Shown: in pieces, positions 2,457-10,016 of the stretch
Position numbering within the stretch: the stretch's first letter is position 1
Layout: each line of letters starts with the position of its first letter
IMG/VR virus record: IMGVR_UViG_2529292830_000010
DNA from: a virus
Taxonomy: Duplodnaviria > Heunggongvirae > Uroviricota > Caudoviricetes
Length of the DNA stretch: 10,016 nucleotides
Direction: 5' to 3' (one strand)
The notes under the pieces: generated by a model
Database searches by the model: none
What the model was told of the DNA's origin: nothing
The model's input: the letters and a program-made list of their open reading frames with translations, nothing else
Position numbers and translations under genes: made by a program

Positions 2457-2710
2457 ATTAATGGGTTAACTATGTCGGTTAAACGACCAGCCAACTGAAA
2501 AAGCGGAAACCTGATTATAGGTTGCCAGATAAGGCAATAAGCTACCTGGCGCGGAACGGACTGATAAGTATGGGGAGTGTTTTACGATGAACCTTTAGAC
2601 TAAAGAGTTTGTAACGCTATGTAAGTGATTTTTTCTAGTTTAGATATTTATATGTCCGGCCAAATTGAGGTGTGTTTAAATGTAATTGCACATTGATTGT
2701 AGGAGGAATA

Positions 2711-2890
2711 ATGAAAAACGCATTGCAGTTTTTGTTTGTTGCGTTCTGGTTGTTCGTATCATGTATGCCCATCATCTTCACAGCAAGGTATATGGAAAAA
2801 GTTGATGTTTTGATATTAATATTTGGATATATAAATGCCCTTTTTTTAGGGGTGTTCATGGCGGTCATGTGCATTGAATACTGGCGGTAA
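2711..2890 (+). CDS. Small membrane protein with two predicted TM helices (59 aa)
   Basis: ATG at 2711 preceded by AGGAGG (2701-2706). Two hydrophobic stretches (LQFLFVAFWLFVSCMPIIF and VLILIFGYINALFLGVFMAVMCI). AT-rich island. Confidence 0.5.
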   Translation: MKNALQFLFVAFWLFVSCMPIIFTARYMEKVDVLILIFGYINALFLGVFMAVMCIEYWR

Positions 2891-2945
2891 ATACAGCGAA
2901 CTCCATTGGTTTAGTTGGATATTTATTGTGCTGGACAAAAACGGT

Positions 2946-2973
2946 TTGCGGGGAAATCTTAGTTAAGTAGAAT
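2946..2973 (+). promoter_or_regulatory. Candidate sigma70 promoter for the hok mRNA (-35 TTGCGG, 16-bp spacer, -10 TAGAAT)
   Basis: Hexamers at 2946-2951 and 2968-2973. Predicted transcript from about 2980 to the terminator at 3397 is about 420 nt, typical for hok mRNAs. Confidence 0.3.
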
Positions 2974-3091
2974 GACTGCGGGTGCTTGAGGCTATCTGCC
3001 TCGGGCATGAACACCAACGGCAGATAGAGAAAAGCCCCAGGTAACATTACGCGTCCTGCAAGACGTTTAACATTAATCTGAGGCCATATCT

Positions 3092-3151
3092 ATGCGACAC
3101 ATAGAGATTAGCCTCTTACGGACCGAAAGGTCAAGGAGAAGCAGGCTATGA
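3092..3151 (+). CDS. mok-like upstream ORF (19 aa) whose stop overlaps the hok start
   Basis: ATG 3092 with GAGG 8 nt upstream. TGA at 3149-3151 overlaps the hok ATG at 3148-3150. Confidence 0.3.
   Translation: MRHIEISLLRTERSRRSRL
3105..3134 (-). promoter_or_regulatory. Candidate sok antisense promoter (minus strand: -35 TTGACC, 18-bp spacer, -10 TAATCT)
   Basis: Reverse complement of 3129-3134 and 3105-3110. The predicted antisense transcript would start near 3098 and cover the mok start and SD (3079-3094), as expected for Sok. Confidence 0.3.
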
Positions 3152-3303
3152 AGCAGCAAAAGGCGATGTTAATCGCCCTGATCGTCATCTGTTTAACCGT
3201 CATAGTGACGGCACTGGTAACGAGGAAAGACCTCTGCGAGGTACGAATCCGAACCGGCCAGACGGAGGTCGCTGTCTTCACAGTCTACGAACCTGAGGAG
3301 TAA
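3148..3303 (+). CDS. hokD: Hok family type I toxin (51 aa), HokD/RelF-like
   Basis: Translation MKQQKAMLIALIVICLTVIVTALVTRKDLCEVRIRTGQTEVAVFTVYEPEE is near-identical to my recollection of E. coli HokD (RelF). Single TM helix plus the conserved C-terminal Cys-containing periplasmic tail. Confidence 0.85.
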   Translation: MKQQKAMLIALIVICLTVIVTALVTRKDLCEVRIRTGQTEVAVFTVYEPEE

Positions 3304-3373
3304 GAGACTTGGCGAGGGAGAAATCCCTCGCCACCTCTGATGTGTCAGGCATCCTCAATGCACCCGCACTTAA

Positions 3374-3397: not shown

Positions 3398-3579
3398 CTG
3401 TAAATATTTTTATAAAAATAATGCCCACACACAGCATAAAACAAAAAGTATCACAGATAAAAAAGGAGCGTAATGTGCAGATTTGTTGTTTTCCATATTT
3501 ACTCACTTTAACATAATCAATATTGATATGGTTGTTGTTTCGGTGGTTTCAAACGAGATGTTATGGTGATCTGGTAAAA

Positions 3580-3608
3580 TTGCATAACATTAAAATTTAA
3601 TTTATCTA
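3580..3608 (+). promoter_or_regulatory. Candidate promoter in the AT-rich intergenic region (-35 TTGCAT, 17-bp spacer, -10 TATCTA)
   Basis: Hexamer match only; lies upstream of the rem-like/DUF968/rusA/Q gene block. Confidence 0.25.
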
Positions 3609-3761
3609 ATCGCTTTTAATAATAAGCGTTGTGTTTATCCCAACAATCTGTTGTTTGACTTTTATTCCATTAATGTAGGGGCTTTACACTGGAACCAGTT
3701 TATTTATACTTTATACGCCAGCCTGAACAACTGGCACCTGCTGCGCCAGCAGAGACAACCG

Positions 3762-4041: not shown

Positions 4042-5090
4042 GTGCGGGTATTACTTCGACCTGTTCTGGTACCGGAACTCGGGCTGGTGATCGTTAAGCC
4101 GGGCCGTGAATCCATGCCGGTATTCCACAATACCCGGTTACTGGTGGAGCCGGAACCGAAAAGCATGCGTAATCTGCCGTCCGGGGTCGTTCCTGCCGCT
4201 CGCCAGCCGCTGGTGGAAGACAAAACATTGCTGCCGTTTTTCAGTAACGCACGGGTGATTCGTGCTGCTGGTGGTGCTGGTGCATTGTCTGACTGGCTGT
4301 TGCGCCATATTAAATCCTGCCAGTGGCCACACGGCGATTATCATCACAGCGAAACCGTCATTCACCGTTATGGTACCGGCGCAATGGTGTTGTGCTGGCA
4401 CTGCGACAACCAGCTGCGTGACCAGACATCCGAATCACTCGAGCAACTTGCTCATCAAAACCTGTCAGCATGGATGATTGACGTCATCGGTCACGCAATA
4501 AGCGGTACGCAGGAGCGTGAATTATCTCTGGCTGAATTATCCTGGTGGGCGGTCCGCAATCAGGTGGCGGACGCGCTACCGGAAGCGGTATTACGTCGTT
4601 CGCTGGGGTTGCGTGCGGAAAAATCCGCTCAATGTACCGTGAAAGCGACATCGTACCGGGAGAGCAGACCGCCACCAGCATACTGAAACAGCGCACAAAA
4701 AATCTTGCGCCGCTGCCTCACGCCCACCAGCAACAGAACCCACCACAGGAAAAGACGGTGGTCAGCATTGCCGTTGATCCTGAGTCTCCGGAATCTTTTA
4801 TGAAACGACCTAAACGTCGCCGCTGGGTTAACGAGAAATACACACGCTGGGTGAAGACACAGCCGTGTGCGTGTTGTGGTAAGCCAGCCGACGATCCCCA
4901 TCACCTGATTGGTTATGGTCAGGGCGGAATGGGGACAAAATCTCACGATATTTTCACGCTACCGCTGTGTCGGGAGCATCACAACGAGCTTCATGCGGAT
5001 CCGCTGGCGTTCGAAGAAAAGCATGGTTCTCAGGTTGATTTAATTTTTCGTTTTCTTGATCACGCCTTTGCAACTGGCGTGCTTGGGTAA
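4042..5090 (+). pseudogene. DUF968 (YdfU-like) protein gene split by a frameshift at an A5 run (4619-4623); would encode about 349 aa if repaired
   Basis: Two overlapping ORFs (4042-4686 frame 1, 4545-5090 frame 0) that together match the DUF968 architecture. C-terminal part has the Cys/His-rich motif CACCGKP...HHLIGYG...CREHHNELH. Confidence 0.65.
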
Positions 5091-5473: not shown

Positions 5474-6295
5474 ATGAAACTGGAAGATTTACCGAAATAC
5501 TACTCCCCAAAATCCCCTGGCCTGACCGATGCATCGGCCTCAACGTCAAAAGATGCGCTGAGTATCACTGATGTGATGGCCGCGCAGGGCATGACACAGA
5601 ATCGGGCTGAGATGGGTTTTTCTGCGTTCCTGGGGAAAATGGGCATCAGTATGAATGACAGGGCGCGGGCAACAGAATTACTGGCAGATTATGCACTCAG
5701 TCGGTGCGATCGTGTGGCGGCGTTGAGAAAACTTCCGGCAGAAATAAAACCGGTAGTGATGCGCATTATGGCTTCGTACGCTTTTGAGGATTATGCCCGT
5801 AGCGCAGCGAGTAAAAAGCAGTGCCCTTGTTGCTATGGGGAAAAATTTATTGAAAGCGTAGTTTTTACAAACAAGGTCCAGTATCCGGATGGTAAGCCGC
5901 CGGTATGGGCAAAGTGTACGAAAGGTGTGTATTCGTCTTACTGGGAAGAATGGAAAAAAGTCAGGGAGGTGGTAAAAGTTGCCTGTCCGGAGTGTGGCGG
6001 AAAGGGTGAGGTTTCCACCGCCTGTAAGGATTGCCGTGGGCGTGGTGTCGCCATTCATCGTGAAGAGTCGGTAAAACGTGGTATGCCTGTTATCAGAGAC
6101 TGCCAGCGTTGTGGTGGTCGTGGCTATGAAAGACTACCATCAACGGAGGCATTTAATGCTATATGCGAGGTGACAAACCAGATAACACGCGCGTCATGGG
6201 AAAAAACAGTTAAGAAATTCTATGATGCGCTGGTGACCCGGTTTGATATTGAAGAAGCATGGGCTGAGCGGCAGTTAAAAAAGGTAACTAGGTAA
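5474..6295 (+). CDS. Late-gene antitermination protein Q (large QuuQ/YdfT-type, 273 aa) with DnaJ-like CxxCxGxG zinc-finger motifs
   Basis: Sits immediately upstream of a PR'-like promoter and terminator. Motifs CPECGGKG, CKDCRGRG and CQRCGGRG. Resembles my recollection of E. coli QuuQ (YdfT). Confidence 0.85.
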   Translation: MKLEDLPKYYSPKSPGLTDASASTSKDALSITDVMAAQGMTQNRAEMGFSAFLGKMGISMNDRARATELLADYALSRCDRVAALRKLPAEIKPVVMRIMASYAFEDYARSAASKKQCPCCYGEKFIESVVFTNKVQYPDGKPPVWAKCTKGVYSSYWEEWKKVREVVKVACPECGGKGEVSTACKDCRGRGVAIHREESVKRGMPVIRDCQRCGGRGYERLPSTEAFNAICEVTNQITRASWEKTVKKFYDALVTRFDIEEAWAERQLKKVTR

Positions 6296-6438: not shown

Positions 6439-6514
6439 GGCCCTTTAGCTCAGTGGTGAGAGCGAGCGACTCATAATCGCCAGGTCGCTGGTTCAAATCC
6501 AGCAAGGGCCACCA
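6439..6514 (+). tRNA. tRNA-Ile (anticodon CAU, lysidine-type; ileX/ileZ-like), CCA encoded
   Basis: Cloverleaf folds by hand: acceptor GGCCCTT/AAGGGCC, T-arm GCTGG-TTCAAAT-CCAGC, anticodon loop CTCATAA. Near-identical to recalled E. coli ileX. Confidence 0.9.
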
Positions 6515-6614: not shown

Positions 6615-6688
6615 GCGTTGTTAGCTCAGCCGGACAGAGCAATTGCCTTCTAAGCAATCGGTCACTGGTTCGAATCCAGTACAGCGCG
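6615..6688 (+). tRNA. tRNA-Arg (anticodon UCU)
   Basis: Acceptor GCGTTGT/ACAGCGC, D-arm GCTC...GAGC, anticodon arm ATTGC-CTTCTAA-GCAAT, T-arm ACTGG-TTCGAAT-CCAGT. CCA not encoded. Confidence 0.85.
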
Positions 6689-6801
6689 CTATATTCATTC
6701 TTCCAGATTCCTTCCGGCAGAGCCTTATACTGAAATATACCTGGCTCAGGATATTGTTGAAAATATTTTATGTTTGTCAAAAATAAAAGTTCTGTTAAGT
6801 A

Positions 6802-7602: not shown

Positions 7603-7938
7603 TTATGGACTTTGTTGTTTTAGTCCATAAGGACATATTTGCAGAGTGCAACGGTTATTAAAGCATTCATTCAATACGTTATCTGTATTTGTAGGACATT
7701 CCTGGCTGTTTTTGATTAAATTCCAGAATGTTTTATTGAATGGTACTACGTTGTAAATGGTTACAGGTAGCACTTTGTTATTGAGCATGATACCTGTGTG
7801 AGTCAGTGTAAATATACTTTCAGGAGGTAAGAAAGCATCCGATTGATACCAGATTATTAATTTTATTTTACTCCATATGACTGAAAAAGATATTCCGCAT
7901 GATGGCTGGATAACTGTATCAATCACAATCCACTTCAT
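7603..7938 (-). CDS. Hypothetical moron protein (111 aa), AT-rich, Cys-rich C-terminus
   Basis: Minus-strand ATG (7936-7938) with AGGAAG RBS. The stop is embedded in an 11-bp perfect inverted repeat (7601-7611 / 7622-7632). About 30% GC, unlike the flanking phage genes. Confidence 0.45.
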
Positions 7939-8183: not shown

Positions 8184-8387
8184 ATGGTGGAAAGAACCAT
8201 GGCATTTAAACACTATGATGTTGTCAGGGCGGCGCCGCCGTCAGATCTTGCGGAAAAGCTGACACATAAACTGAAAGAGGGCTGGCAGCCGTTTGGTAGT
8301 CCGGTGGCCATAACCCCTTATACCCTGATGCAGGCGATTGCAGCAGAAGGTGATGTGGTGGTCAGTGGTGCAACTGAGCCCGAGTGA
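8184..8387 (+). CDS. DUF1737-like small protein commonly found just upstream of lambdoid lysis genes (alternative start ATG 8199)
   Basis: ORF MVERTMAFKHYDVVRAAPPSDLAEKL... at the conserved position before the holin. GGTGG RBS fits the 8199 start. Confidence 0.65.
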   Translation: MVERTMAFKHYDVVRAAPPSDLAEKLTHKLKEGWQPFGSPVAITPYTLMQAIAAEGDVVVSGATEPE

Positions 8388-8630
8388 TACTACGTCATCG
8401 TACTGGCCCGGCATTCCAGGCCATAAAAGACAGTCTGGCAGTGGGACTAAATGTACTGACGCTGACGGATATTACCAAAAATGCAACGTATGGCGTTGAG
8501 ATAGAAAGTCTGGTGCTGGAGATAAATGCACCGGCATCATCATAAAAAGTGAGCCAGTCAAATGGAAGGTATCGTTAAACTCACCGGTAGTGTCAGTGGA
8601 TCGTCTGAGACGCTTGCATGAGTTATCAGA

Positions 8631-8660
8631 GCCATCAGTAGTTAACTGGTGGCTTTTTTA
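8631..8660 (+). terminator. Candidate rho-independent terminator upstream of the holin gene
   Basis: Stem GCCATCAG / CTGGTGGC (one G-U pair), loop TAGTTAA, then TTTTTTA. Confidence 0.35.
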
Positions 8661-8694: not shown

Positions 8695-8910
8695 ATGGAC
8701 CAGATGGAAAAAATCACAACAGGTGTGTCATACACCACGTCAGCGGTGGGAACGGGCTACTGGTTCCTGCAGTTGCTGGACAGGGTTTCCCCGTCTCAGT
8801 GGGCGGCAATAGGCGTGCTGGGGAGTCTGCTGTTTGGGCTGCTGACATATCTGACTAACCTGTATTTCAAAATCAGAGAGGACCGTCGTAAGGCGGCACG
8901 GGGAGAGTAA
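8695..8910 (+). CDS. S: Phage-21-type class II holin (pinholin, 71 aa) with dual-start motif (Met1 and Met4)
   Basis: [71 protein letters not shown] is near-identical to the recalled S21 pinholin. GGGAGACGGGG RBS. The track ORF from 8590 is an in-frame upstream extension. Confidence 0.9.
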
Positions 8911-8914
8911 TTCA

Positions 8915-9265
8915 ATGACTCAAAACTATGAACTGATTGTGAAAGGGATCCGCAATTTTGAGAATAAAGTTACGGTAACTTTAGCGTTACGGGACAAAAA
9001 ACGCTTTGACGGTGAAATTTTTGACCTGGACATCTCGCTGGACCGTGTTGAAGGTGCCGCGCTGGAGTTTTATGAGGCAGCAGCCAGAATGAGCATCAGA
9101 CAGGTCTTCCTGGATGTTGCTGCCGGGTTATGTGAAGGGGATGAGCAGTCGCCGGAAAAGCGCCCCGTAATTTTAGAGGCGCAGAATGTATGGATAACCT
9201 ACAAAGGAAAGCTACCGGGAAGAATTACTGGTTCTCTGAAGACTCCTCCGGAATCACAACCTTAA
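8915..9265 (+). CDS. Hypothetical soluble protein (116 aa) between holin and endolysin
   Basis: ATG 8915 five nt after the holin stop, with GGGGAGAG RBS. No TM segment. Not a recognised lysis-cassette component. Confidence 0.55.
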   Translation: MTQNYELIVKGIRNFENKVTVTLALRDKKRFDGEIFDLDISLDRVEGAALEFYEAAARMSIRQVFLDVAAGLCEGDEQSPEKRPVILEAQNVWITYKGKLPGRITGSLKTPPESQP

Positions 9266-9328
9266 GTCACTGACCGGAACAGATAAACCTGTCCGTGGGC
9301 AGAAACCGATAAATCCTGATAAATATCC

Positions 9329-9649
9329 ATGAACGCAAAAATCAGATACGGCCTGTCGGCTGCCGTTCTGGCACTGATTGCCGTCGGTGCGCCCGCGCCT
9401 GATATTCTCGACCAGTTTCTGGATGAAAAAGAAGGTAACCACACAACGGCATACCGCGATGGGTCCGGCATCTGGACCATCTGTCGGGGTGCCACGATGG
9501 TGGATGGAAAACCCGTTTTTCCCGGTATGAAACTGTCGAAGGAAAAATGCGACCAGGTCAACGCCATTGAGCGTGATAAGGCGCTGGCATGGGTGGAGCG
9601 CAATATTAAAGTACTACTGACCGAACCACAAAAAGCGGGTATAGCGTAA
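9329..9649 (+). pseudogene. R: SAR endolysin (phage-21 R-like GH24 lysozyme) truncated after about 106 codons by IS insertion
   Basis: N-terminal Ala/Gly-rich SAR segment (YGLSAAVLALIAVGAPAP). Catalytic spacing E-x8-D-x5-T in EGNHTTAYRDGSGIWT. Reading frame ends at a stop formed at the IS boundary (GCG|TAAGCG), roughly 60 codons short of a full lysozyme. Confidence 0.8.
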
Positions 9650-10016
9650 GCGACTCGTCAGAACCGTATTGATATTTACTGAGAGCTCAGATCAACTTTC
9701 CAGGGCAACAGATCGCGTACCCGGTTTGCCGGCCAGTCCTGGATATGTTCAATGACGTAACGCAGCCACTTTTCTGGCTCCACATTGTTCAGACGGCATG
9801 TGCCGATCAGCGAGTACAACACCGCCGCATGTTCACCACCGCTGTCGGAACCCGCGAACATCCAGTTTTTCCGGCCTACGGCCACTCCCCGTAAGGCGTT
9901 CTCTGCGATGTTGTTGTCGATTTCCACCCAGCCATTACTGCAGTACACGTTCAGTGCATCCCACTGTTTCAGCAGGTATGCGAACGCTTTTGCCGTATCT
10001 GAGTGACGCGACAGTG
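9646..10016 (-). mobile_element. IS66-family insertion sequence, one end only (element continues beyond window end)
   Basis: Terminus begins GTAAGCG at 9646 (characteristic IS66-family end) and the element encodes an IS66-type transposase C-terminus on the minus strand. Confidence 0.8.
9676..10016 (-). CDS. IS66-family transposase, C-terminal portion (N-terminus outside window)
   Basis: Minus-strand frame open to the window edge. Translation ...HSDTAKAFAYLLKQWDALNVYCSNGWVEIDNNIAENALRGVAVGRKNWMFAGSDSGGEHAAVLYSLIGTCRLNNVEPEKWLRYVIEHIQDWPANRVRDLLPWKVDLSSQ matches the conserved C-terminal region of IS66 transposases. Confidence 0.85.
   Translation of the reverse strand, partial: LSRHSDTAKAFAYLLKQWDALNVYCSNGWVEIDNNIAENALRGVAVGRKNWMFAGSDSGGEHAAVLYSLIGTCRLNNVEPEKWLRYVIEHIQDWPANRVRDLLPWKVDLSSQ

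Follow-up and report, generated by a model that had tools for sequence, protein, structure and literature searches.

The 116-aa open reading frame (ORF) that separates the holin and endolysin genes in this stretch of DNA (10,016 nucleotides analysed as a whole, hereafter the window) almost certainly encodes a member of the YdfR/DUF1327 family. With a rough probability of 0.45, ydfR is best explained as an Escherichia-restricted accessory cargo gene that lambdoid prophages would carry within their late lysis operon, the site being a probable recombination hot spot between the P21-type pinholin gene (S) and the RrrQ-type SAR endolysin gene (R). On this explanation, the N-terminal domain of YdfR would be a small host-factor-binding module co-produced with S and R at a late stage of infection, for which the catalytic N-terminal half of RNase E may be the best available candidate target. 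The genes are arranged in the order P21-type class II holin, soluble 116-aa ORF, spacer and SAR-type lysozyme, and the features of the locus, in coordinates of the window, are as follows.

8628–8656, plus strand: putative terminator-like hairpin with T-run in the leader just 5′ of the holin start (consensus scan)
8695–8910, plus strand: P21-type class II holin (pinholin type), 71 aa, Met1/Met4 dual starts (PF04971, PHROG holin families, hydropathy)
8900–8907, plus strand: Shine-Dalgarno sequence GGGGAGAG inside the last holin codons (sequence; junction comparison of 23 loci)
8915–9265, plus strand: ydfR-family gene (DUF1327), product of 116 aa, soluble and acidic (PF07041; RefSeq name; 319 homologous clusters)
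8915–9139, plus strand: conserved N-terminal domain, aa 1–75 (AF2, variant comparison, dN/dS)
9140–9262, plus strand: variable tail module, aa 76–116, PEKRPVILEAQNVWITYKGKLPGRITGSLKTPP and ESQP (AF2; replaced or extended in other variants)
9266–9328, plus strand: 63-nt spacer, the 5′ leader of R (alignments, junction table, fold z-score)
9329–9646, plus strand: RrrQ-type SAR endolysin (GH24 lysozyme), truncated 5′ fragment of 106 codons (PF00959; identity to an intact lysozyme)
9647–10016, minus strand: end of an IS66-family element, ISCro1 (PF03050/PF13817; RefSeq annotation in locus L001)

In the homology search proposed for it, the 116-aa protein scored 142.4 bits (E 5.3e-42, residues 1–112) with the Pfam family PF07041 (DUF1327), where the cut-off is 25. 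RefSeq annotates the protein as "YdfR family protein" (WP_000193264.1), and it also matched PHROGs 2091, 406, 1085 and 2735, all of unknown function, while NCBIfam returned no family match. This is a tiny family, to which 64 of 1.84 billion representatives belong, and its homologues form 319 clusters, of which the named ones are almost all from Escherichia/Shigella. A match to the 3128-aa repeat protein P0161 (E 3e-9 in the representative search) was discarded as the sum of weak matches to G2F repeats of ∼29 bits each. The initial annotation had described an extra soluble gene between an S21-type pinholin and its SAR endolysin, and the ORF is indeed devoid of hydrophobic segments (maximum 19-residue Kyte-Doolittle score 1.03; pI 5.2). 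It was also examined as a possible spanin or other standard lysis component and rejected, as it showed no transmembrane segment, no lipobox and no homology to lysis families in Pfam or PHROGs; Rz ("lysis protein," PF03245)/Rz1 are found downstream of R in intact relatives. The novelty implied for the gene did not hold, as the existing annotation of E. coli K-12 (essQ-ydfR-rrrQ) and of many Stx phages includes the gene, its family and its site between holin and endolysin; ydfR is a minor discovery as such.

The holin matched PF04971, "Bacteriophage P21 holin S" (E 9e-33), and is named "class II holin family protein" in RefSeq (WP_000372595.1). Counted from Met1, it consists of 71 aa with the second Met at codon 4; TMD1 (residues 8–28) is weakly hydrophobic, with 52% Gly/Ala/Ser/Thr, and falls under the hydropathy threshold, and TMD2 (residues ∼36–56) is strongly hydrophobic. 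The HMM match, the length of ∼70 aa, the two TMDs with a SAR-like TMD1 and the dual Met are those expected of a P21-type pinholin, to which class the protein is assigned on sequence grounds. The Met1/Met4 dual-start antiholin motif was kept by all holins in the junction comparison of 23 loci, with or without YdfR.

The endolysin matched PF00959 and showed a Gly/Ala-rich hydrophobic N-terminal segment at residues 7–24 (YGLSAAVLALIAVGAPAP; 50% Gly/Ala/Ser/Thr), and E35, D44 and T50 are present at the positions of the E-D-T catalytic triad. The domain, the SAR-like N-terminus and the triad point to a SAR-type GH24 lysozyme. The coding sequence is incomplete, as 106 of the 177 codons are left, and it is annotated in RefSeq as an incomplete pseudogene (locus L001); its product matches residues 1–106 of the complete lysozyme WP_000992097.1 (177 aa) of a relative (locus L002) with 100% identity. 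The gene is cut at ∼9646 by ISCro1 (IS66 family), whose transposase C-terminus lies at 9676–9948 on the minus strand, and relatives without the IS cease matching at 9647. Two points had been missed by the initial annotation, namely, the family of the ORF and the reduction of the endolysin to a 106-codon fragment by ISCro1. The prophage in the window is defective, with the IS-cut endolysin, a frameshifted DUF968 gene and a DUF1737 fragment.

The tight placement of the ORF after the holin was confirmed: the holin stop TAA occupies 8908–8910 and is separated by 4 nt (TTCA) from the following ATG at 8915, and this 4-nt gap is kept across every YdfR-bearing variant. The GGGGAGAG sequence within the last holin codons is the Shine-Dalgarno sequence of ydfR, and the equivalent GAGGTGA serves R in uninterrupted cassettes, where the ATG of R overlaps the S stop as TAATG, TGATG or TAGTG. 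That R directly follows S in phage 21-type cassettes was borne out by the TAATG overlap at the DLP12 essD/rrrD junction and by the contiguity of S and R in phage 434, PA-2 and 73 further phage records. In insert-bearing cassettes, R is always found behind an AU-rich leader without a Shine-Dalgarno sequence, and the insertion of ydfR puts R behind a conserved leader of this kind.

The spacer is 63 nt long and carries three GATAAA motifs as initially described, but the range given for them did not stand, since the first motif lies at 9282, 4 nt before 9286; the other two are at 9308 and 9318. Two of the three fall within the conserved R leader, and GATAAA occurs 15 times over both strands of the window vs. 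6.3 expected. The segment ∼9270–9328 is common to the window and an E. ruysiae locus, and 9305–9328 (ACCGATAAATCCTGATAAATATCC) is common to most of the insert-bearing cassettes examined. The leader contains a 10-nt tandem repeat, GATAAATCCT/GATAAATATC, and the GATAAA cluster is best regarded as belonging to this conserved leader; no support was found for a binding-site array. Neither a Shine-Dalgarno sequence nor a significant RNA structure was seen in the spacer (fold vs. shuffled, z −0.46), and an RNA element was rejected because the fold was no better than shuffled and neither promoter nor terminator was found.

ydfR-like DNA was present in ∼80% of complete E. coli genomes (4314/5426), with up to 9 copies per genome, and the protein was found in 101 Escherichia phage records. 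The suggested survey of S21-R21-type cassettes was carried out with the P21-type holin on 74 loci, one genome per species. YdfR was restricted to Escherichia/Shigella and three MAG contigs binned to unrelated taxa, which are possibly E. coli contamination. Outside Escherichia/Shigella, wherever a lysozyme was detected, its start overlapped the holin stop or lay within ∼13 nt of it, with the exception of one Pseudomonas locus (∼61 nt). Every YdfR locus examined showed the order holin, YdfR, lysozyme, the lysozyme being always of the RrrQ type. The alleles of the holin, the YdfR N-domain and R assort independently; phage 86, for example, is 99, 56 and 93% identical to the window in these three, respectively. 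In other strains, the S-R junction is occupied by unrelated ORFs of 185 and 209 aa or by antisense ORFs.

Comparison with known systems places the window close to the K-12 prophage Qin, in which YdfR (b1555, P76160, PF07041) likewise starts 4 nt after a 71-aa P21-type holin (essQ) and is directly followed by the RrrQ-type lysozyme and then by Rz/Rz1. However, the K-12 protein is shorter (103 aa vs. 116 aa), and its tail, beyond about residue 76, is unrelated to the PEKRP...TPP tail of the window protein; in addition, the K-12 ydfR stop overlaps the rrrQ start (ATGA), where the window has the 63-nt spacer. A DUF1327 protein is also encoded between S and R in BP-4795 (Stx1; ORF47), Stx2 phage 86 (orf5), many Stx1a/Stx2c phages, mEp460 and YYZ-2008. 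The Stx-type phages together with mEp460 and YYZ-2008 are functional inducible lambdoids that have both the tail module and the conserved R leader in common with the window, but their N-domain allele, of the KKKYE... type with an EAKKQAK helix, is just 52–56% identical to that of the window. Unlike the window gene, orf5 of phage 86 encodes 268 aa and is followed by the antisense orf6. In cassettes of the phage 21/DLP12/434 type, the holin has the same length of 71 aa and the same dual-start motif family (the window holin is 80% identical to DLP12 EssD), and the endolysin is a SAR-type GH24 enzyme with E35/D44/T50 at the same positions. Here, R starts at the S stop with no gene in between, whereas the window carries ydfR, and the endolysin is of the RrrD/R21 type (165 aa) as against the RrrQ type (177 aa when intact).

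The first ∼75 aa, the N-domain, are common to all YdfR family variants, the window N-domain being 80% identical to that of K-12. Residues 1–70 were modeled by AF2 with block-mean pLDDT of 76–92 as three β strands and one long α helix (βββα), and the domain carries E46-G47-x-x-L50-E51-x-Y53-E54 as a conserved motif. The model gave no informative structural relative, and PDB sequences searched with the profile of the family gave nothing better than E 0.28. The dN/dS of the N-domain was 0.22–0.30 (∼0.25) in most pairs, up to dS of ∼1.5, indicating purifying selection. On account of this and of the intact copies in the functional phages BP-4795, phage 86, mEp460 and YYZ-2008, ydfR is a real protein-coding gene under selection, and the refutation offered with the initial annotation, loss or decay of the ORF in close relatives, did not apply, as the ORF is intact in them. 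The tail (AF2 pLDDT ∼40) is swapped among variants: that of K-12 differs, the long forms (176–196 aa) carry an extra module of ∼65–80 aa, and protein P0146 consists of tail modules without the N-domain.

The only functional data on the family come from a single study, in which residues 1–72 of K-12 YdfR bound Rne(1–597/598) in two-hybrid and co-purification experiments (Goepel et al., 2026; PMC13232886). In the same study, DNase-resistant nucleic acid co-purified with K-12 YdfR, a contaminant as the source of the RNA not being excluded by the authors. RNase E may be regarded as the best candidate because of this binding and the co-purifying RNA. If RNase E is bound, YdfR would tune RNA turnover, either at a late lytic stage or in lysogens, and would not act on the envelope. 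Binding or modification of RNase E has been reported for the small phage proteins T4 Srd, T7 gp0.7 and phiKZ Dip (gp37) (PMC4980113); the target of Srd is the catalytic N-terminal half, which K-12 YdfR reportedly binds as well, and Dip uses acidic patches, the YdfR N-domain being likewise acidic (pI 4.8). However, this pI is atypical for a direct RNA binder, and overproduced K-12 YdfR altered few transcripts, which fits poorly with a global modulator of RNase E (PMC13232886). The interaction was observed with an overexpressed, tagged K-12 protein whose allele differs from that of the window. RNase E or RNA as the physiological target of YdfR is possible but doubtful. The Keio ydfR mutant appears as a CPRG hit in Paradis-Bleau et al. 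(2014); a link of ydfR to envelope integrity was set aside, as a polar effect of the kanamycin cassette directly upstream of rrrQ would be the simpler explanation. In the literature on ydfR/DUF1327, no study of a role in lysis was found; DUF1327 is mentioned in a single paper, and most matches to "ydfR" referred to a melanoma cell line.

Among the roles proposed initially (a lysis regulator, an accessory factor or a moron exploiting late expression), the evidence leans to accessory cargo exploiting late expression, as equally related S-R cassettes of other genera do without YdfR, the gene has a lower GC content than both neighbours (47%, GC3 47%, against 54 and 65% in the holin and 53.5 and 57% in R), its alleles are independent of those of the holin and endolysin, and other cargo occupies the same junction. 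The distinct composition and the presence or absence among collinear relatives are those of a moron. However, no sigma-70-like promoter or intrinsic terminator was detected around 8911–9328 in a consensus scan and the Shine-Dalgarno sequence is borrowed from within the holin; with neither signal found, ydfR is not a classical moron. It is probably non-essential cargo and not a core component of lysis. Since S-R pairs of similar identity elsewhere lack it, ydfR seems dispensable for pinholin/SAR-endolysin lysis as such.

The position right after the holin and the tight spacing fit a lysis-related role equally well. YdfR could be a cytoplasmic regulator of lysis timing, acting like an antiholin on the C-terminal tail of the pinholin or restraining the SAR endolysin. 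Besides the constant 4-nt gap and the Shine-Dalgarno sequence within the holin, such a role would be in line with the predicted co-transcription of ydfR with S and R, without a promoter or terminator of its own, and with its occurrence exclusively alongside RrrQ-type endolysins. P1 LydB is encoded beside its holin, and LydB and T4 RIII are small soluble modulators of holin triggering, but YdfR has no homology to either. Both LydB and the cytoplasmic RIII are soluble antiholins according to PMC9025707 and PMC8385771; the holins beside YdfR keep their own dual-start antiholin irrespective of YdfR. A lysis regulator is nevertheless unlikely, as pinholins of 55–80% and RrrQ-type lysozymes of 62–83% identity do without YdfR in many genera, and no co-variation was seen, N-domains of 52–56% identity being paired with holins of 92–99% and lysozymes of 91–93%. 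Unrelated ORFs can also fill the junction instead, and YdfR lacks homology to lysis families.

It is equally conceivable, though not probable, that YdfR is cargo with another host or phage role, such as anti-defence, superinfection exclusion or lysogen fitness, the binding of RNase E being an artefact of overexpression. The narrow host range, odd composition, modular tails and hot-spot site are typical of accessory or arms-race genes, the gene is multicopy and widespread in E. coli, and it is intact even in heavily decayed prophages (K-12 Qin, and the window with its IS-disrupted endolysin). But PADLOC gave no match for the window protein, the long YdfR forms or the antisense ORFs, and the N-domain is under purifying and not diversifying selection. 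Moreover, the site in the late operon implies that the gene is essentially silent in lysogens, with almost no reads in K-12 (PMC13232886).

There is a slim chance that the insert acts mainly in cis and that the protein is of minor importance: by uncoupling R from the Shine-Dalgarno sequence in the holin and from the stop/start overlap, it would yield less or later endolysin relative to holin. The overlap in uninterrupted cassettes, the AU-rich leader lacking a Shine-Dalgarno sequence in insert-bearing ones and the variety of cargo ORFs that can take the site would agree with this. However, the N-domain is under purifying selection over large synonymous divergence, YdfR is predicted with confidence to fold compactly, and the K-12 variant restores the coupling to R by its ATGA overlap, all of which indicates that it is the protein that is being maintained. 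A non-functional remnant or chance ORF in a decaying prophage, as the defects of the window prophage might suggest, is effectively refuted by the conservation data (Pfam E 5e-42, hundreds of intact homologues including those of inducible phages, and dN/dS ∼0.25).

Escherichia-restricted cargo with a late host-factor-binding module hence remains the preferred explanation. A more specific proposal, which is improbable as it stands, is that YdfR is a late-expressed effector of temperate phages that would bind the catalytic half of RNase E (and RNase G) through its acidic N-domain and reshape RNA decay as the lytic cycle ends. Such an effector may protect the long late transcript, including the S/R and, in Stx phages, the nearby stx messages; alternatively, it could couple RNA turnover to lysis timing, with the interchangeable tails retargeting or tuning it. 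If true, lambdoid/Stx phages would have their first described RNase E effector, and a y-gene present in ∼80% of E. coli genomes would gain a function. Most E. coli genomes, often with multiple copies, and Shiga-toxin phages carry DUF1327 within the operon that determines the timing of lysis and hence of toxin release. The swappable-cargo hot spot, the R leader without a Shine-Dalgarno sequence and the restriction to Escherichia provide a framework for knockout work, and an effect of YdfR on RNase E or on the timing of lysis, if there is one, could alter burst size and the release of Stx.

The lysis cassette of the window was laid out as follows.

8695-8910, plus strand: P21-type holin ORF, 71 aa from Met1 (PF04971, 'Bacteriophage P21 holin S', E 9e-33)
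8915-9265, plus strand: 116-aa ORF of the ydfR family (PF07041, DUF1327)
between the 116-aa ORF and 9329: spacer of 63 nt, read from the raw sequence
from 9329, plus strand: lysozyme ORF (PF00959, phage lysozyme)

The soluble 116-aa ORF placed tightly behind the holin (S) by the initial annotation, and the spacer ahead of the endolysin (R), were both present. The holin stop codon (TAA, 8908-8910, in the ORF list and the raw sequence) is separated from the next ORF by 4 nt (TTCA). The three GATAAA motifs claimed for the spacer region were also recovered, at 9282, 9308 and 9318, the first lying 4 nt before the range assigned to them. The holin has two possible starts (Met1/Met4), a weakly hydrophobic segment 1 rich in Gly/Ala/Ser/Thr and a strongly hydrophobic transmembrane segment 2, and the lysozyme carries a Gly/Ala-rich hydrophobic segment at its N-terminus together with E35, D44 and T50. 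These sequence features fit a pinholin plus SAR-endolysin pair, and the cassette is a Qin-type variant, with an RrrQ-type lysozyme, of the phage-21 pinholin/SAR-endolysin system. In the late-operon leader, ∼40 nt ahead of the holin start, a terminator-like hairpin with a 12-bp stem precedes a T-run (8628-8656); the structure may act as a terminator subject to read-through by Q-modified polymerase.

The middle ORF matched PF07041 with 142 bits (E 5e-42) and is named 'YdfR family protein' in RefSeq (WP_000193264.1). On every feature tested, the insert almost certainly belongs to the YdfR/DUF1327 family and occupies the position usual for that family. The Qin cryptic prophage of E. coli K-12 shows the same order, i.e., essQ, a 4-nt gap, ydfR, rrrQ, and rzpQ/rzoQ. 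However, ydfR of K-12 encodes 103 aa and has an ATGA overlap with rrrQ, whereas the window ORF encodes 116 aa and is followed by the 63-nt spacer. The novelty implied for the extra gene was thus lost, as gene and arrangement are already annotated in K-12 Qin and RefSeq. Of 5426 complete E. coli genomes, 4314 carried DNA similar to ydfR, at up to nine places per genome. YdfR is also encoded by 101 phage records, exclusively from Escherichia phages, among them many Stx1a/Stx2c phages, BP-4795 (ORF47), Stx2 phage 86 (orf5), mEp460, and YYZ-2008. The family is very small, with 319 clusters at 90% identity (the named ones almost all Escherichia/Shigella) and only 64 representatives among 1.84 billion proteins clustered at 50%.

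The expectation that R directly follows S in phage 21-type cassettes was borne out in DLP12, phage 434, PA-2, and 73 other phage records; DLP12 has a TAATG overlap where the window has ydfR and the spacer. A survey was made of 74 loci encoding relatives of the window holin, from a collection of one genome per species; the lysozyme and any YdfR homologue were located in each, and a direct S-R junction was scored only where a lysozyme was detected. In Enterobacter, Kluyvera, Phytobacter, Kosakonia, Klebsiella, Raoultella, Pantoea, Citrobacter, and others, the lysozyme overlapped the holin stop or lay within about 13 nt of it, the exception being one Pseudomonas locus with a gap of about 61 nt. 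Direct junctions were seen for both RrrQ-type and RrrD/R21-type (DLP12/phage 21-type) lysozymes. YdfR was confined to Escherichia/Shigella loci and three MAG contigs that had been binned to unrelated taxa and could represent E. coli contamination; at the survey loci, the lysozyme downstream of YdfR was always RrrQ-type. Holins 55–80% and RrrQ-type lysozymes 62–83% identical to those of the window occur without YdfR. That such relatives operate without it speaks against a core role of YdfR in pinholin/SAR-endolysin lysis, and YdfR is read here as dispensable cargo (probability about 0.65).

The GC and GC3 contents of ydfR are both 47%, against 54 and 65% for the holin gene and 53.5 and 57% for R. 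Phage 86 shares with the window a holin 99% and a lysozyme 93% identical, but a YdfR N-domain (the first ∼75 aa) only 56% identical, whereas another related locus (L005) combines an 80% identical holin with a 97% identical YdfR. In these comparisons, holin, YdfR, and lysozyme alleles assort independently, which fits recombinational shuffling of an accessory module; they gave no sign of co-evolution of YdfR with holin or lysozyme. An accessory gene exploiting late expression, among the roles suggested initially, is the best-supported option, but the gene was rejected as a classical moron, since neither a promoter nor a terminator belongs to it. A cytoplasmic regulator of lysis timing, favoured by the location right behind the holin and by the existence of soluble antiholins, is a less likely alternative, as YdfR is absent from related cassettes, the holin retains its dual-start antiholin, and YdfR alleles do not co-vary with the lysis proteins.

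The junction is itself mosaic. When K-12, long-form loci, E. ruysiae, E. albertii, and BP-4795 were aligned to the window, all YdfR variants proved to have the first ∼250 nt (aa 1 to ∼76) in common. Beyond this point K-12 ydfR has an unrelated tail, a 'PEKRPIILEAQNVWITYKGKLPGRITGSLKTPP' module is present in the window and in many other loci, and long forms (176–196 aa) have an additional module of ∼65–80 aa. The protein P0146 has the tail modules and lacks the N-domain. Likewise, some Escherichia/Shigella loci (L013, 2720-3277; L069/L070, 2720-3349) have between S and R an ORF of 185 or 209 aa that is devoid of the DUF1327 N-domain and has only tail modules in common with YdfR. Since these ORFs carry the coiled 'NEIAELNKKLS...SEDEKKRRDEQFAAF' module of long YdfR, the tail modules act as independent units. 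In the 176- and 183-aa loci examined, a gap of ∼320 nt after ydfR holds an antisense ORF of 86–88 aa. Antisense ORFs in the ydfR-lysozyme gap were located as follows.

L004 (related locus), 3479-3745, minus strand
L018 (E. ruysiae locus), 3031-3309, minus strand
L087 (phage 86, orf6), 2632-2946, minus strand

These ORFs (86–104 aa) had no Pfam or PADLOC match and could represent additional cargo of this hot spot.

The window YdfR is soluble (maximum 19-residue hydropathy 1.03) with a pI of 5.2, and its N-domain has a pI of 4.8. Pairwise Nei-Gojobori dN/dS for the N-domain was 0.22–0.30 in most comparisons, even at dS values up to ∼1.5; for the tail, the number of sites was too small for an informative estimate. 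AlphaFold2 modeling from a 34-sequence alignment gave a confident N-domain (block-mean pLDDT 76–92, residues 1–70), with pLDDT <50 from residue 76 onward and a tail mean of ∼40. The modeled N-domain consists of three antiparallel strands (5–14, 18–27, and 34–43) and a 24-residue helix (50–73). The most conserved residues, E46, G47, L50, E51, Y53, E54, and A57, group at the strand 3/helix junction and may form an acidic interaction surface. Foldseek with the model returned no match at E < 0.1 in PDB or at E < 0.01 in BFVD, and a profile search of PDB sequences found nothing; the homology and structure search proposed initially yielded the family (PF07041) and no informative fold match.

Goepel et al. 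(RNA Biol 2026; PMC13232886) was the only report found to treat YdfR in any substance. In that study, ydfR codons 1–72 were recovered three times in a bacterial two-hybrid screen, full-length YdfR gave signals with Rne(1-597), and Strep-YdfR co-eluted Rne(1-598). DNase-resistant nucleic acid co-purified with YdfR, a contaminant not being excluded by the authors; overexpression changed few transcripts, and ydfR was essentially silent in K-12 under standard growth (PMC13232886). The N-domains of the window and K-12 proteins are 80% identical. Other phage proteins are known to act on RNase E, namely T7 gp0.7, phiKZ Dip, and T4 Srd, the last binding the catalytic half of the enzyme (PMC4980113). 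On the favoured reading, ydfR is lineage-specific cargo of the late operon, translated from a Shine-Dalgarno sequence embedded in the holin, with interchangeable tails and a conserved acidic N-domain that would bind a host factor. RNase E is the one candidate to which experiments point, and the assignment of RNase E/RNA as true target is tentative. Another cargo function, e.g., anti-defence or exclusion, is a less favoured possibility. Paradis-Bleau et al. (2014; PMC3879167, supplementary files 2 and 5) list the Keio ydfR deletion with the CPRG-positive (envelope-defect) mutants; as the resistance cassette immediately precedes the lysozyme gene rrrQ, a polar effect may be the simpler explanation.

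The right boundary of the insert is a conserved AU-rich leader, ACCGATAAATCCTGATAAATATCC-ATG (window 9305-9328), without a Shine-Dalgarno sequence. Most of the insert-bearing cassettes examined have it next to the start of the RrrQ-type lysozyme, among them L004, L008, L018, L052, L069, L086, and L087; K-12, L012, L013, and L016 share only its last ∼8–18 nt. Two of the three GATAAA motifs fall within this leader, and the third is common to some relatives. The whole spacer matches the L018 region except for a ∼270-nt segment present in L018 and absent from the window. RNA structure in the spacer was not significant (fold z -0.46), and no promoter or terminator was found in it. In uninterrupted cassettes, the R start overlaps the S stop and R uses a GAGGTGA/GGGGAGAG site inside the last holin codons, whereas in insert-bearing cassettes this site serves the inserted ORF and not R. 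The insert would thereby alter translation of R; that it acts purely in cis on R translation is unlikely. The conservation data rule out a junk ORF.

A Qin-like prophage of E. coli NCCP 13717 (locus L001) matches the window with 100% identity. In the region of endolysin and IS (window 9329-10016; L001 13329-16569), the endolysin is a fragment, an IS66-family element (ISCro1) having inserted after codon 106, with the terminal repeat GTAAGCG at about 9646 and tnpC/tnpB/tnpA on the minus strand. The 3' part of the lysozyme gene, followed by Rz and iss/bor, lies 2.7 kb further along the genome; in IS-free relatives, an intact lysozyme gene (177 aa) precedes Rz ('lysis protein') and iss/bor. Because ISCro1 splits the endolysin gene, the prophage has a dead lysis cassette, with holin and ydfR still intact. 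Two tRNA genes (6439-6514 and 6615-6689) were seen downstream of the Q antiterminator gene (5474-6295). One is tRNA-Arg(TCT); the other has a CAT anticodon, assigned to Met by ARAGORN and to Ile by RefSeq, and is probably a lysidine-modified ileX-type tRNA. Such a pair, which serves rare codons, is a typical feature of lambdoid phages of the Stx-like kind. Other features of the prophage are as follows.

3148-3303, plus strand: hokD
4042-5090, plus strand: DUF968 gene, frameshifted
7603-7938, minus strand: IraM/PmrD-like anti-adapter gene, other cargo
8184-8545, plus strand: DUF1737 gene (incomplete pseudogene in RefSeq), then a separately annotated 53-aa ORF
9676-9948, minus strand: C-terminus of the ISCro1 transposase

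The gene and its arrangement are already known. The remaining value of the finding lies in the role of a gene that is very common in E. coli and Stx phages.
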